A stretch of 42,554 bases of DNA, taken from a virus. Taxonomy: Duplodnaviria > Heunggongvirae > Uroviricota > Caudoviricetes. The notes beneath the pieces were generated by a model that saw nothing but the letters and a program-made list of their open reading frames with translations, did no database searches and was not told the origin of the DNA. The DNA lies in IMG/VR virus record IMGVR_UViG_2802429237_000001, positions 1-42,554 of that record, one strand, 5' to 3'. Both the position numbers and the translations under genes were made by a program. Shown here one piece after another: positions 1 to 42,554 of this stretch (position 1 is its first letter; every line of letters begins with the position of its first letter).

Positions 1-342
1 ATGATGAAAAAAAGTATATTGGCGTTTTTGTTGCTCACCAGTTCCACAGCGGTGCTGGCGGCTCCTCAGGTGATTACCGTCAGCCGTTTTGAAATTGGCA
101 AAGACAAATGGGCGTTTAATCGCGAAGAAGTGATGTTGACATGCCGACCGGGTAATGCGCTGTATGTCATTAATCCCAGCACCCTGGTGCAATACCCTTT
201 GAACGATGTTGCGCAAAAAGAGGTTTCCAGCGGGAAGACTAAGGCCCAGCCTATTTCAGTGATCCAGATTGACGATCCCAACAAACCTGGTGAAAAAATG
301 AGCCTGACGCCATTTATAGAACGAGCTGAAAAACTCTGCTAA
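1..342 (+). CDS. yebY: Host periplasmic protein YebY (DUF2511-like), with signal peptide
   Basis: 113-aa ORF with N-terminal signal peptide ([20 protein letters not shown] then APQ); matches my recollection of enterobacterial YebY; lies outside the repeat-delimited prophage. Confidence 0.8.
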
Positions 343-370
343 TTACCTGAATTAGCCTTTTGATTTCCCA

Positions 371-410
371 AAAAAACGCCGGGGATCTTTTATCAGACCG
401 GGCGTTTTTT
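371..410. terminator. Hairpin flanked by A-run and T-run; likely bidirectional intrinsic terminator after yebY
   Basis: aaaaaacgccgggg...gaccgggcgtttttt: imperfect GC-rich stem with poly-A on the 5' side and poly-T on the 3' side. Confidence 0.5.
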
Positions 411-496
411 ACTTTTTAAAGGATGATAAAGACGCTTTTTTCTGACCACTTTTCATGTGGACTGGAAAACCTGGCGTCGTCATCTATTCTTAAAGG

Positions 497-599
497 GCAA
501 GGCAACTAAGCCTGCATTAATGCCAACTTTTAGCGCACGGCTCTCTCCCAAGAGCCATTTCCCTGGACCGAATACAGGAATCGTATTCGGTCTCTTTTT
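497..599 (+). ncRNA. sdsR: SdsR (RyeB) small RNA; its terminator hairpin carries the prophage att core
   Basis: gcaaggcaactaagcctgcattaatgcc...ccgaatacaggaatcgtattcggtctcttttt matches my memory of the ~104-nt SdsR sequence; ends in hairpin ccgaatac/gtattcgg plus U-tract; context between yebY and pphA is the known sdsR/ryeA locus. Recollection-based, not searched. Confidence 0.6.
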
Positions 600-600
600 A
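574..600. repeat. attL core: 27-bp direct repeat acaggaatcgtattcggtctcttttta
   Basis: Exact copy of 41533..41559; lies next to the integrase gene; flanking sequence diverges on both sides. Confidence 0.75.
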
Positions 601-631
601 ATTGTATTTAAAATCAACTAGTTGCAAACGT

Positions 632-651
632 TTCCCCGAAATTCCCCGAAA
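632..651. promoter_or_regulatory. Tandem repeat ttccccgaaa x2; candidate integrase arm-type binding sites
   Basis: ttccccgaaattccccgaaatttactcgaatttc between attL core and int stop; a related motif attcccgaaaatttc...actcgaaaaaaa occurs near attR at 41386..41420. Confidence 0.3.
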
Positions 652-730
652 TTTACTCGAATTTCTGTATTCCGGTCTTTTTTGGTTATATCACAACCAA
701 AATATATTTAACAATCCATTTACGTAAAAA

Positions 731-1807
731 TCAGAGCAGTAAGTACGTTTTTTCTCTATCATCAAGATACAGTTTTGTTGTCTTCTCCGATGTGTGGCCA
801 AGTAGACGTTGAGCAAATTCTTCTCCACAGGTTTCTTTGTACAGTCGTCCGGCCAGACTTCTGATCTCGTGAAAAGTTGGCGGATTTTCACTGAACTGGA
901 TACCCGATAATTTTCTGGCTGCGACAAATTTTTTTGTCAGGCCGTCCGGGTGAATGCTGCCGTCCGGGCTGTTTTTTCTGATCCCTGCACTGATTAGATA
1001 ATCCCCCCGACTTAGCAGTCGACACCGATCAATCACTGCTCCCAGCCGTAAACCAGCGACCGGAAGGCTGAGTGACAGGGGGATAGCAATCATCATTCCT
1101 GTCTTAATTTGCTTGATGTGGAGACGATCATCATAAATATCACTGAATCGCATATTCGTTATGTCTTCGCGACGTTGTCCTGTTACAAGGGCTAAGTCCA
1201 TAGCTAATGGGAACCATGCCGGAAGTTGGTCTGCTGCCTCCCTGATGTAGTTGTATGTCTTTAGTTTCAGCCGTTCTCTTGTAACTACTATTTTCGGTGC
1301 TCTTGTTGGCGTTACTGGATTTTGAGATATACGTCCTTCAACAATGGCTTCGCGGAACATATCAGATAACACAGAACGCATTGATCCTGCCATCGTGTTT
1401 TTCCCTCCTTCAATCCACAAATCAAGAAACTCGGCAATATGGCGAGTGGTTATTTCTGTCAGTAAAATCCCTCCTAATTTTTCTTTTATTGTTTCCAGTT
1501 GATTTACCCTAATTTTATAAGTATTTCTGGACACTTTTCTCCTTATAAGAATCGTTTTGTAACGTTCAATCCAGTCTGCCATAGTAAATGAGTCGACCCC
1601 TTTAAGTTTTTCAATTAAGGCAGCAGGAGAGTAGTTTTTGTATATATAATGATTTGCTTCAATTGCCTGCGCGATTGCATCTCTTCTTGAAATTTTACCT
1701 AGTGTAAATTCTTCTTTCGTCAGAGGGTTGCGCCAGTAATATGCTTTGTCCCTCCTTCGATATGTTAAGTTCCTAGGCAAATTGGGATCGTATTTTTTCC
1801 GCTGCAT
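731..1807 (-). CDS. int: Tyrosine recombinase, lambda Int-family prophage integrase
   Basis: 358-aa ORF adjacent to attL; C-terminal tyrosine-recombinase-like region (HEIRSLAGRLY...LLGHTSEKTTKLYLDD); position and length match Rac IntR. Confidence 0.9.
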   Translation of the reverse strand: MQRKKYDPNLPRNLTYRRRDKAYYWRNPLTKEEFTLGKISRRDAIAQAIEANHYIYKNYSPAALIEKLKGVDSFTMADWIERYKTILIRRKVSRNTYKIRVNQLETIKEKLGGILLTEITTRHIAEFLDLWIEGGKNTMAGSMRSVLSDMFREAIVEGRISQNPVTPTRAPKIVVTRERLKLKTYNYIREAADQLPAWFPLAMDLALVTGQRREDITNMRFSDIYDDRLHIKQIKTGMMIAIPLSLSLPVAGLRLGAVIDRCRLLSRGDYLISAGIRKNSPDGSIHPDGLTKKFVAARKLSGIQFSENPPTFHEIRSLAGRLYKETCGEEFAQRLLGHTSEKTTKLYLDDREKTYLLL

Positions 1808-2060
1808 GTTTTAACTTCTCCAGTAACGGACTGTCTCTCCCTTGTCGCCCATTAGGCTGATGGTGTGTTATATCGGTATCAACCTTATTTGGGTTGATAT
1901 AGAAAGCCTCCGGAACCACTCTGTAACTCCTCCCGTGTAGTTCAGGTGCAGGATAAATGTTTCCATTCCTTGCCCATCGTCGCAGCGTTGATATTGATGG
2001 TGGATTATCCGGATATCTGAGTTTTCCCCACGTTTTGAGTGTCACAAGATTCATTGCCAT
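1773..2060 (-). CDS. xis: Putative excisionase
   Basis: Small basic ORF immediately upstream of int and overlapping its start by 35 nt, the classic xis-int arrangement; start may be Met1 or Met3. Confidence 0.6.
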   Translation of the reverse strand: MAMNLVTLKTWGKLRYPDNPPSISTLRRWARNGNIYPAPELHGRSYRVVPEAFYINPNKVDTDITHHQPNGRQGRDSPLLEKLKHAAEKIRSQFA

Positions 2061-14876: not shown

Positions 14877-15273
14877 CCTCATATTGCTGAGTAGCTGGTA
14901 CTGCATATTATTATGAAAACACATCGTGGTTTTTATATAAAAGCTGCTTATTATTAAGAGATCTGTTTTATGTTTTTGGCTAGTAAAATGTGATTCTTAA
15001 CTTAAATGTTCCCTTACACTAGATTTATAATATCATCGTGTGATTTATAAACTATGCATTAGTAATAATTAATTTTTCGGAAAAATAGTTAAGTAAAATT
15101 GCTGCGTGTGCTTGAGGCTATCTGCCTCGGGCATGAACACCAACGGCAGATAGAGAAAAGCCCAGTTAACATTACGCGTCCCGCAAGACGTTTAATATTA
15201 ATCTTAGGCCAATTTCATGCTAGACACATGGATGTTAGCCTCTTACGTGCCGAAAGGCAAGGAGAAGCAGGCT

Positions 15274-15429
15274 ATGAAGCAGCAAAAGGCGATGTTAGTC
15301 GCCCTGATCGTCATCTGTTTAACCGTCATTGTGACGGCACTGGTAACGAGGAAAGACCTCTGCGAGGTACGAATCCGAACCGGCCAGACGGAGGTCGCTG
15401 TCTTCACAGCTTACGAACCTGAGGAGTAA
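15274..15429 (+). CDS. hok: Hok/Gef-family type I toxin
   Basis: 51 aa MKQQKAMLVALIVICLTVIVTALVTRKDLCEVRIRTGQTEVAVFTAYEPEE; matches the Hok/HokD (RelF) pattern; in-frame upstream extension from 15217 may correspond to a mok-like leader. Confidence 0.8.
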   Translation: MKQQKAMLVALIVICLTVIVTALVTRKDLCEVRIRTGQTEVAVFTAYEPEE

Positions 15430-39625: not shown

Positions 39626-40521
39626 TGGCGAAAAATGACTTTAAAGCGTTTGCAACTGATCGAAATGCCAATGTTATGCCGCAGAAGGAATGGGAAGCAT
39701 TGCCTGCGCTTTTATCCGGATTTACAGCAGGGAAAGCATCCAGTGCGCAAGTCAATAAGGTTATTCGGCAGGCCAGCTTTATAGCAGCAGCACTTGCACA
39801 GTACACAGCAAACAAAAGCGGACTGGATGTATTGGATGATGGCGACCTGAATGGGTTCATTACCAAAATGTCTTCTGCGTTCGGTAAGGATTATCAGGCG
39901 CTTGATGCCACGTTGACGGCTCTGGCAGGACTGGCGACTGGGGCAAATAAGCTACCGTATTTCACTGGCACAGATAAGGCTGCGCAGACCGACCTCACTA
40001 AGGTAGGCCGTGATATTATCGGCAAAAATACTATTGCTGACATTCTCGCATACCTTGGTTTGGGAGAAGGCTCTGCATTGCCTGTTGGCGTACCTGTTCC
40101 GTGGCCTTCGGCCACACCGCCGACAGGCTGGTTGAAATGCAATGGCGCTGCCTTTGATAAGGTGAAATATCCTAAGCTTGCCAAGGTATACACTACCGGA
40201 AAATTACCTGATTTACGTGGCGAATTCATTCGTGGCTGGGATGACGGACGTGGTGTGGATAGTGGGCGAACGTTATTGAGTGCTCAGAGCGATACGCTGC
40301 AAAATATTACAGGTAGCTTTTTGGATATGACTGCGGGGCCAAATAATAGTGCTGTCGGCGTATTTACATCTTCAGTATTGACACCAAATCTCGCATCACT
40401 TGCGACAGGTGGTGCATATAAACAGGCGAATTATTATTTTGATGCATCACGTGTTGCCAGAACATCAGCGGAAACACGTGCACGCAATATTGCATTTAAC
40501 TATATAGTGAGGGCTGCATAA
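39607..40521 (+). CDS. Tail fiber protein
   Basis: 304 aa; conserved fiber motif PVGVPVPWPSATPPTGWLKCNGAAFDKVKYPKLAKVY...LPDLRGEFIRGW; start may be ATG at 39625. Confidence 0.8.
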   Translation: MGSITLMAKNDFKAFATDRNANVMPQKEWEALPALLSGFTAGKASSAQVNKVIRQASFIAAALAQYTANKSGLDVLDDGDLNGFITKMSSAFGKDYQALDATLTALAGLATGANKLPYFTGTDKAAQTDLTKVGRDIIGKNTIADILAYLGLGEGSALPVGVPVPWPSATPPTGWLKCNGAAFDKVKYPKLAKVYTTGKLPDLRGEFIRGWDDGRGVDSGRTLLSAQSDTLQNITGSFLDMTAGPNNSAVGVFTSSVLTPNLASLATGGAYKQANYYFDASRVARTSAETRARNIAFNYIVRAA

Positions 40522-41123
40522 TGGATAAAGCTGTCTTAAATAGTGAGCTTATTGCCACGAAGGCAGGGAATATTACTGTCTATAATTATGATGGTGAAAC
40601 ACGAGAATATATTTCCGCATCAACTGAATATCTTGCCGTTGGTGTCGGCATTCCGGAATGTTCCTGTTTAGATGCTCCTGGCGCATACAAAGCTGGTTAT
40701 GCAATCTGTCGTTCTGTGAATTTAAATTCGTGGGAATATGTGCCAGACCATCGCGGCGAAATCGTCTATAGCACCGAAACAGGAGAATCGAAAGAAATCA
40801 CAGATCCGGGTGATTATCCTGAAAATACAACCACTATGGCCCCGTTAACGCCATACGATAAATGGGATGGTGAGAAATGGGTGACAGACACCGAGGCACA
40901 ACACAGTGCCGCAGTAGAAGCGGCAGAAGCACAGCGCCAGTTACTGATTGATGCTGCTATGGCTTCCATTAGTCTGATTCAGTTGAAATTACAGGCCGGA
41001 CGTAAACTGACGCAGGTAGAAACAACCCGATTAAACGCTGTGCTGGATTACATTGACGCGGTGACAGCAACAGATACCAGCACCGCGCCAGATGTCATCT
41101 GGCCTGAACTGCCAGAGGCGTAG
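40521..41123 (+). CDS. Tail fiber assembly protein (Tfa-like)
   Basis: 200 aa; C-terminal segment LQLKLQAGRKLTQVETTRLNAVLDYIDAVTATDTSTAPDVIWPELPEA typical of Tfa chaperones. Confidence 0.8.
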   Translation: MDKAVLNSELIATKAGNITVYNYDGETREYISASTEYLAVGVGIPECSCLDAPGAYKAGYAICRSVNLNSWEYVPDHRGEIVYSTETGESKEITDPGDYPENTTTMAPLTPYDKWDGEKWVTDTEAQHSAAVEAAEAQRQLLIDAAMASISLIQLKLQAGRKLTQVETTRLNAVLDYIDAVTATDTSTAPDVIWPELPEA

Positions 41124-41228
41124 ACTGGGTGGCTAATTGCATCAGGAGTTCATCGCCAGAAGGCGGCGATCATCTATGATGTTGGCGTATCGACTTTGTA
41201 TAAGAAGTTTCCGCTCGGAGATGAATGA
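41124..41228 (+). pseudogene. 3' remnant of a Pin/Gin-family DNA invertase (HTH end)
   Basis: In-frame directly after the tfa TAG stop: TGWLIASGVHRQKAAIIYDVGVSTLYKKFPLGDE, resembling the C-terminal HTH of Hin/Gin/Pin invertases (..IYDV.LSTLYKK..); no catalytic domain remains. Confidence 0.55.
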
Positions 41229-41532
41229 AACCGTAGCACGTCGTATGCAAGAACGTGCCACGGCTGGCTGATGGACGTTCGATAGCGCGAGTTTGAATGA
41301 AAATCAGCCGGAGGTGATTTTACATAATTGCTACGGAATTATTCAATACAGGGATTGCTTGTGTATGCATGGATTGACCTGAAATATTCCCGAAAATTTC
41401 TCTAAAAAACTCGAAAAAAATGGTAACTAATTGAATGCATTAATATGTAATGGTACGTGTCAGGGATTAAAAGATGAGTATAAATTTATTTAATGCATTG
41501 ATTCTAAAAGCTTTTGTTGCTTATTGACGAAA

Positions 41533-41559
41533 ACAGGAATCGTATTCGGTCTCTTTTTA
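41533..41559. repeat. attR core: 27-bp direct repeat acaggaatcgtattcggtctcttttta
   Basis: Exact copy of 574..600; preceded by an AT-rich non-coding arm. Confidence 0.75.
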
Positions 41560-41705
41560 TCTATAAAGCCAACGGATGAATACATCACTGTTTTCCCTGT
41601 GCTGACTTCACAATCAACCATAACACACACTCTACTGCTTCAGTCCAGCCTTTTTTAACATTTATGTTAAAATAATGTGACCTTCTGCGCGGGAGTAAAA
41701 AATTG

Positions 41706-42362
41706 ATGAAAGAGGCAGGCCGCACCTATCAGAAAATTGATGGCAGCCATTGGCGACATATCTGGTTGGTAGGGGATATTCATGGCTGCCTTGGGCTACT
41801 GCGTATCAAATTATGGCACTGCCGTTTTGACCCGTGGCAAGACTTATTGATCTCGGTAGGTGATGTTATTGATCGTGGTCCGGAGAGTTTGCGTTGTCTT
41901 CAACTACTGGAGCAACGCTGGGTTAGAGCGGTAAGAGGTAATCATGAGCAGATGGCGATAGATGCACTGGCCGCGCAGCAGATGTCTTTATGGTATATGA
42001 ACGGTGGCGACTGGTTTGCTGCGCTGACAGATAAACAACAGAAGCAAGCAGAAAGGGCACTCGAAAAATGCCAGCATTTGCCTTTTATTCTTGAATTAAA
42101 CAGTTGCACGGGCAAACATGTTATTGCCCATGCTGATTATCCAGACGACATTTATCAATGGCAAAAGGAAGTCGATTTGCACCAGGTATTGTGGAGTCGT
42201 TCGCGATTACGTGAAGGCCAAAAAGGGCAGGGAATTAGCGGTGCTGACCATTTCTGGTTTGGCCATACGCCATTACCTCATCGTGTAGATATTGGAAACT
42301 TGCATTATATAGACACCGGCGCCGTCTTCGGAGGGACACTCACGGTGGAACAACTCCAGTAA
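41706..42362 (+). CDS. pphA: Serine/threonine protein phosphatase 1 (PrpA/PphA), host gene
   Basis: 218 aa from ATG at 41706 (track start is TTG); metallophosphatase motifs GDIHGC, GDVIDRG, GNHE; close to my recollection of E. coli PphA but not identical. Confidence 0.9.
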   Translation: MKEAGRTYQKIDGSHWRHIWLVGDIHGCLGLLRIKLWHCRFDPWQDLLISVGDVIDRGPESLRCLQLLEQRWVRAVRGNHEQMAIDALAAQQMSLWYMNGGDWFAALTDKQQKQAERALEKCQHLPFILELNSCTGKHVIAHADYPDDIYQWQKEVDLHQVLWSRSRLREGQKGQGISGADHFWFGHTPLPHRVDIGNLHYIDTGAVFGGTLTVEQLQ

Positions 42363-42554
42363 CTAAAAGTTACTGTACTCCTGTGCGGGCCGCCAGAACC
42401 CATCAATAAAATCCTCAACAGGAAAGCAGCCACCGTGGCGGATCCGTTGATCGTCCATTGAGTAGATGCACTGCTGTTCCGTGTTGTAAACGTCAACAAC
42501 AATATCTTCACAGCCAGCGTCCAGATAGCAAACAAAAAGTACCAGCGCGAACAT
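42363..42554 (-). CDS. yebW: YebW-like small host protein
   Basis: 63-aa ORF MFALVLFVCYLDAGCEDIVVDVYNTEQQC... beginning at the window edge and abutting pphA as in E. coli; recollection-based. Confidence 0.7.
   Translation of the reverse strand: MFALVLFVCYLDAGCEDIVVDVYNTEQQCIYSMDDQRIRHGGCFPVEDFIDGFWRPAQEYSNF

Follow-up and report, generated by a model that had tools for sequence, protein, structure and literature searches.

In phages lambda and HK022, the P arm of attP carries P1, H1, P2, X1, X2/F and H2, and the P' arm carries H' and P'1-3. Integration into a small-RNA locus has been described for the Salmonella phage PhiW104, which, as relayed in PMC7380047 (from Balbontin et al. 2008), inserts into the final ~23 bp of ryeB/sdsR; in the same account (PMC7380047) the insertion changes ryeA in its 5' part, with RyeA levels falling and RyeB levels rising. 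The prophage analysed here lies in the same ryeA/ryeB (sraC/sdsR) locus, with an att site internal to ryeA, an intact SdsR and a RyeA that has lost its 5' part and promoter. The host genus is different, and the likeness is one of locus, drawn from the description of PhiW104 and not from phage sequences.

We analysed the interval 41229-41532 of a 42,554-nt stretch of viral DNA (IMG/VR record IMGVR_UViG_2802429237_000001; this whole stretch is hereafter the window). The prophage within it is 40,959 bp long and carries int and xis at the end far from the interval. A first-pass annotation had described the interval as an AT-rich, non-coding right arm between an invertase remnant and attR. Its limits were placed correctly, with the remnant on the left and the att repeat, from 41533, on the right (Table 1). 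The interval is also non-coding throughout, and AT-rich for about two thirds of its length only: GC content is 30% in 41327-41532, compared with 50% in the left third (41229-41326) and 48% in the whole window. The interval consists of two modules, element X (41228-41323) followed by the P arm (41324-41532), that is, ordinary lambda-type att anatomy next to a widespread junction element. We assign a probability of about 0.8 to the reading that these are a lambda-type P arm and a separate mobile junction element.

The absence of a credible ORF, also claimed earlier, was borne out, as only frames of 25-46 aa with TTG or GTG starts are found. These small ORFs were rejected as genes: they are without start and ribosome-binding signals, and the two that span the core are disrupted in 34-35 of 38 related sequences. 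An Rfam search over 40900-41800 returned no family at threshold, with only sub-threshold fragments of RyeA and CssrB, and a simple terminator scan found none in 41229-41532. By alignment, the invertase remnant to the left corresponds to the 3' end of the pinE gene that E. coli relatives carry in full length. About 164 N-terminal codons of the invertase have been lost, and the remnant begins 7 nt past the tfa stop (41121-41228). The invertible tail-fibre segment of relatives (L006) is missing here as well, and the tail-fibre type is therefore fixed.

Table 1. Features at the two ends of the prophage, in window coordinates; signed distances are in bp from the centre of the SdsR terminator loop
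Feature	Position	Strand	Remarks
yebY	1-342		host gene left of the prophage
SdsR	500-599	+	116 bits
RyeA body	603-459	-	176 bits; kept at attL
27-nt att identity, attL copy	574-600		completes an intact SdsR terminator
P' arm	604-730		
P' arm IHF site	612-624	+	+33 to +45
P' candidate arm-type sites	634-643, 644-653, 654-663		10-bp phase; first from +55
Integrase	731-1807	-	PF09003, PF22022, PF00589
Excisionase, lambda Exc family	1773-2060	-	PF07825, E 6.5e-14
Tail-fibre assembly gene tfa	40521-41123		stop codon 41121-41123
Pin/Gin-type DNA invertase, C-terminal remnant	41130-41228	+	32 codons; Pfam HTH_7, E 1.4e-5
Element X, two-hairpin junction element	41228-41323		50% GC
Element X hairpin 1	41231-41263		
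Element X stem 2	41266-41272 with 41303-41309		paired segments
Element X conserved GATTTTAC	41316-41323		
P arm of attP	41324-41532		30% GC; conserved in 35 distinct relatives
Candidate arm-type Int site P1, TTCCCGAAAA	41387-41396	+	-151 to -142; CYCGAAW
Candidate arm-type Int site P2, AACTCGAAAA	41408-41417	+	21 bp from P1; CYCGAAW
Degenerate IHF-like site, two mismatches	41433-41445	-	first copy of the 20-nt repeat; first aatgcatt
IHF consensus AATCAATGCATTA (H2 analogue)	41491-41503	-	-47 to -35; second aatgcatt
27-nt att identity, attR copy	41533-41559		exact repeat of 574-600
Putative RyeA start	near 41609	-	directed through the core into the P arm
Host RyeA promoter, -10 TATGGT with upstream TG	41622-41617	-	by alignment to K-12; conserved
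Host phosphatase gene pphA	41703-42362		right of the prophage

Attachment sites at the 3' end of sdsR

Both prophage ends carry the same 27-nt sequence, ACAGGAATCGTATTCGGTCTCTTTTTA (574-600 and 41533-41559), which corresponds to the 3' half of the SdsR terminator. When window positions 1-600 were joined to 41560-42554, the resulting sequence was 99.2% identical over 1598 bp to Escherichia whittamii strain Sa2BVA5, in an alignment that was collinear and unbroken at the junction and represents the empty site. The att-type core is thus duplicated at the prophage ends and single in the unoccupied E. whittamii site. At the level of sequence, insertion of the prophage in the sdsR/ryeA locus is proven. 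The joined host flanks are only 83% identical to those of E. coli K-12, and the 99.2% collinearity with E. whittamii indicates that the host is E. whittamii or a very close relative.

The point of exchange could be narrowed with an E. coli lysogen of a related prophage, in which attL consists of host-left and phage-right sequence and attR of phage-left and host-right sequence. Marker bases in this lysogen confine strand exchange to 11 nt, ACAGGAATCGT, which correspond to 41533-41543 in the window. These 11 nt contain the 7-nt loop of the SdsR terminator, AGGAATC (41535-41541), with the inverted-repeat stem on either side, the form that core sites usually take. For annotation, the prophage boundary is fixed at 41533 and the crossover is narrowed to 11 bp near the terminator loop. 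In our reading the prophage integrated by Int-mediated exchange within this loop, which placed the P arm at attR and the P' arm beside int at attL.

The attR junction was found in 211 and the attL junction in 228 of 5426 complete E. coli genomes, meaning that ~4% of them carry a prophage of the same integrase type at sdsR.

A phage record with a closely related integrase (96.6% identical to that of the window) is PP818812.1, deposited as 'Actinobacillus phage vB_Apl-pPE4'. Its attP core matches 26 of 27 nt of the 3' end of Escherichia sdsR, an enterobacterial sRNA, and from these sequences the stated Actinobacillus host looks doubtful.

The lambda-type P arm

The integrase contains the lambda arm-binding, central and catalytic domains, the first of these matching PF09003 (lambda Arm-DNA-bind_1) with 29.7 bits against a cut-off of 22, and is 40-42% identical to the integrases of HK022, HK97 and lambda over 97% of its length. 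Given this domain composition, the Exc-family excisionase and the degree of identity, the lambda model of a heterobivalent integrase applies. Furthermore, phage PP818812 (L001) and the IMG/VR contigs L022, L027/L029 and L031 have P arm, core, P' arm and int in one uninterrupted stretch. This order in phage records is that of attP as expected before integration.

The suggestion that the interval holds the attP arm sites can be upheld for 41324-41532, and has to be withdrawn for the left third (41228-41323), which is not att DNA. The grounds for an attP arm are the records with an intact attP, the repeats in both arms, IHF sites at lambda-like distances and the lambda-type Int and Xis. The assignment of 41324-41532 as the P arm of a lambda-type attP is well supported; its anatomy can be read from the sequence, and binding by Int, IHF and Xis is predicted.

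The candidate arm-type motif CYCGAAW occurs 27 times in the window, and five of these copies, on a single strand, fall within the ~340 bp of the arms, where its density over the whole window predicts ~0.2; the motif was picked once the sequences had been inspected and was defined on the same sequences used for counting it. The exact IHF consensus WATCAANNNNTTR has three matches in 42.5 kb, two of which are in the arms (612-624 and 41491-41503). The P-arm site carries one mismatch in most relatives, and the divergent attPs of L027 and L031 have kept the P' IHF consensus and the CYCGAAWTT repeats, with changed flanks.

The first-pass annotation had also pointed to a motif common to the interval and the attL side. 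As an exact 12-mer, CCCGAAAATTTC, this motif is found once in the window (41389-41400) and is not shared; the two sides do share a shorter core of 7-9 nt, CYCGAAW(TT), which on the attL side is present as CCCCGAAATT at 634 and 644 and as TACTCGAATT at 654. The palindrome reported to occur twice is present, as AATGCATT at 41434 and 41492, the sole two copies in the window, with 1.82 expected by chance. Both copies sit within a 20-nt direct repeat, and most related arms have AATGTATT and AACACATT in their place. As they are neither enriched nor conserved, the palindromes were rejected as functional sites and appear to be incidental. A further repeat, CAKGGATTR, has three same-strand copies in the P arm (41349-41357, 41368-41376 and 41461-41469) and no others in the window; two copies lie beyond the outermost arm site, and the repeat is poorly conserved in relatives.

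The arrangement of the sites resembles that of lambda and HK022, with two candidate arm-type sites in the P arm and three sites in 10-bp phase in the P' arm. The distances of lambda H2, H' and P'1 (~-47 to -35, +33 to +45 and +55) are matched here within 1-2 bp and on the same strands, where the lambda H2 position of -47 to -35 was measured from the centre of the 15-bp common core (27731). P1, at -151 to -142, compares with the lambda 'int 1' footprint at ~-149 to -130 from the centre of the 7-bp overlap (27732). ATATGTAATG lies at a similar distance to ATATGTTGTG of lambda X1 and is only suggestive as an Xis site. There are also differences. The lambda arm site is AGTCACTAT, compared with CYCGAAW here; P1 and P2 are in the same orientation 21 bp apart and, unlike in lambda, have no good IHF site between them; and P2 is ~15 bp farther from the core than in lambda. 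The core itself differs from that of lambda and HK022, with an sRNA terminator serving as attB. In excision, the N-terminal domain of Int would bind the CYCGAAW repeats and its catalytic domains the core, IHF would bend the P arm at 41491-41503 and the P' arm at 612-624, and Xis would bind between P2 and the 41491-41503 IHF site.

The truncated invertase, the lack of an ORF or of an Rfam family at curated thresholds, and palindromes in no more than chance number would also be compatible with a functionless scar between a deleted invertase and att that has become AT-rich by drift. This is highly improbable, since the same sequence is found within the intact attP of phage genomes, its motifs lie at lambda-like distances, the junction recurs in the complete E. 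coli genomes at the frequency given above, and the left module shows compensatory base changes, described below.

Element X, a two-hairpin structure at module junctions

Element X is 75-85% identical to non-coding DNA of HK97, HK106, phi80, HK633, many Stx phages and others, and in these relatives the flanks differ on both sides. Scanning viral contigs with its invariant loop yielded more than 119 loci. Over 75 distinct sequences, the two-helix structure is 90.7% paired, and 10 of 20 pairs have changed on both sides, in both helices. Cells with such changes on both sides numbered 92, whereas shuffles gave 26.8 (0/500) and slid controls 11 or fewer. Folding of X in the window gave z-scores of about -4.2 to -4.4 on both strands, and a covariance model scored the window copy at 111.7 bits. 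We regard the predicted structure as supported. An extension of stem 2 towards the GATTTTAC tract was also tried and was unconvincing, with only 55-71% pairing.

The same model identified a copy in lambda between ea47 and ea31 (108.9 bits; J02459 24156-24261, L157), a diverged lambda copy directly after tfa (orf-194) and convergent with ea47 (36.7 bits; J02459 22567-22667), and an orphan in E. coli K-12 between ykgJ and ecpE (101.8 bits; NC_000913.3 ~304211-304315, L158) with no phage genes nearby. Just upstream of X, the most frequent same-strand genes are pin (42), tfa (18) and tail-fibre (stf) genes. The downstream neighbour is often an opposite-strand DinI-like gene ending 5 nt away, or an integrase, and in the att family of the sdsR locus it is host pphA. 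No X was found downstream of pinE of e14 in K-12. No Rfam family covers X. This conserved, covarying structure at phage module junctions is the only part of the locus that is possibly new.

Two further observations concern the surroundings of X. A 17-nt inverted repeat (41222-41238 and 41329-41345, 82% complementary) brackets it and allows an alternative plus-strand fold of -51 kcal/mol (z -4.4). The repeat was rejected as a part of X because its left arm belongs to the coding sequence of pin and is missing in many relatives; it is probably lineage-specific. The HK633 record labels as 'attP' the same sequence as the K-12 orphan, owing to that similarity; this label is probably wrong because X occurs in phages with unrelated integrases.

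As judged solely from position and structure, the most probable role of X is that of a terminator or 3'-end barrier at the RNA level where convergent transcription units meet. On the plus strand it would close off late (tail-fibre) transcripts, and on the minus strand it would close off int-side transcripts or, at attR in the lysogen, transcripts from the RyeA promoter. Hairpin 1 may serve minus-strand transcripts, an assignment made because wobble pairs are more numerous on the minus strand, and stem 2 with AUUUUAC may serve plus-strand transcripts; the wobble-pair bias is weak and comes from related, non-independent sequences, so that the strand assignment is ambiguous. Against a terminator, the window copy has only short U-tracts, UUUCAUU for the minus and AUUUUAC for the plus strand, and the simple terminator scan gave no hit in the interval. 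Better minus-strand U-runs past hairpin 1 are found in some relatives, such as HK633 and phi80, and the tfa-proximal copy of lambda shows a U-rich plus-strand tail.

The position of X would also suit a retroregulator of int like lambda sib/tI, cleaved or terminating only in the unintegrated phage and separated from int by integration. Like lambda sib, X lies beyond attP when viewed from int, and integration leaves it at attR, apart from int. In HK97 X directly adjoins the annotated sib site, and stem 1 of X has 44 wobble pairs on the int strand compared with 17 on the other. However, HK97 has its own separate sib hairpin beside X, and X often occurs without int nearby, as next to DinI-like genes, in the lambda ea47-ea31 region and in the K-12 orphan. 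The stems of 8-14 bp are short for RNase III, with no extended conserved stem, the stretch from P1 to X has no significant fold (z -0.38), and on the int strand hairpin 1 is followed only by UUUCAUU rather than a U-run. Resemblance to lambda tI/sib is confined to the hairpin and the position beyond attP, with no sequence similarity. A sib-like role is thus less likely than termination, and on balance quite unlikely.

Returning to X as a terminator or 3'-end barrier, a match was noted to the 3'-terminal hairpin of Rfam CssrB (RF02799), a Shigella chromosomal sRNA, which aligns to hairpin 1 on the plus strand. It scores 29.7 bits against a gathering score of 76 and covers only the last ~30 model positions, the remaining ~150 nt being absent; it hints that hairpins of this kind can lie at the 3' end of an RNA. 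For lambda, Luk and Szybalski (1983) reportedly located late-operon terminators in the b region. The lambda copies of X may coincide with the late-operon terminators of that older literature, and X might correspond to poorly defined stops for antiterminated late transcription. A literature search on CssrB and the lambda late-operon terminators yielded nothing usable. We tentatively raise the possibility that X is an undescribed RNA family, a compact two-way terminator or insulator at the meeting point of the late operon and opposed genes that is mobile together with module junctions.

Transcription across the host junctions

In K-12, ryeA (b4432) starts at 1923066, 38 nt past the SdsR 3' end on the pphA side, and its -10 box, TATGGT, is given by a promoter-mutation primer (PMC6610125). 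In the lysogen the RyeA promoter stays at attR and the RyeA body lies at attL, 41 kb away. The first-pass annotation had considered a RyeA-like antisense transcript entering from the host side, and the orientation of the promoter makes host-side transcripts into the P arm plausible. Intrinsic terminator prediction found none inside the P arm, and the first structure able to stop such a transcript would be hairpin 1 of X. A match to SraC/RyeA RNA (RF00101) at 41562-41459 (minus strand) scores 30.7 bits, below the threshold of 37, with only the 5' hairpin region aligning; this sub-threshold match is the severed RyeA 5' fragment.

At attL, the SdsR terminator is complete (-15.8 kcal/mol, z -3.75), whereas no fold was obtained for the attR hybrid (-4.5 kcal/mol, z +0.36), which would thus not hold back plus-strand transcripts on their way out of the prophage towards pphA. 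Transcription of pphA in K-12 comes from read-through that starts at the sdsR promoter (PMC6610125). The prophage puts pphA 41 kb from that promoter, and expression of pphA in lysogens may depend on transcripts leaving the prophage.

These features bear on whether the interval encodes a small RNA or protein of its own, for example a chimeric RyeA'-phage RNA acting on SdsR, or a promoter in the arm for pphA. The RyeA promoter reads into the arm, the first 27 nt past the host leader are complementary to the SdsR 3' end, and with the attR hybrid unfolded plus-strand transcripts could reach pphA, a gene that in K-12 needs the read-through described above. Against this, neither a conserved structure nor an ORF is present in the arm, the small ORFs have no start and ribosome-binding signals, and a promoter-like site on the plus strand was found only at 41153-41180, within the pin remnant and thus upstream of the interval, with none in the P arm. 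Any such RNA would be a by-product of the insertion and not a function of the DNA, and we consider this explanation unlikely. In lysogens with a prophage at sdsR, SdsR retains a terminator, whereas RyeA is separated from its own promoter and pphA from the sdsR promoter, which could alter small-RNA regulation.

Elsewhere in the prophage, two further RNAs were identified: a RalA antitoxin RNA (2165-2343; 216.7 bits), belonging to a RalR/RalA module like that of the Rac prophage, and a sok antisense RNA (15106-15279; 96.4 bits) of a hok/sok-type module. In the P' arm, the minus strand of 601-628 contains a promoter-like sequence, TTTGCA-16-TACAAT, that is aimed at the RyeA body at attL and overlaps the IHF site; it could yield a truncated, phage-driven RyeA in lysogens.
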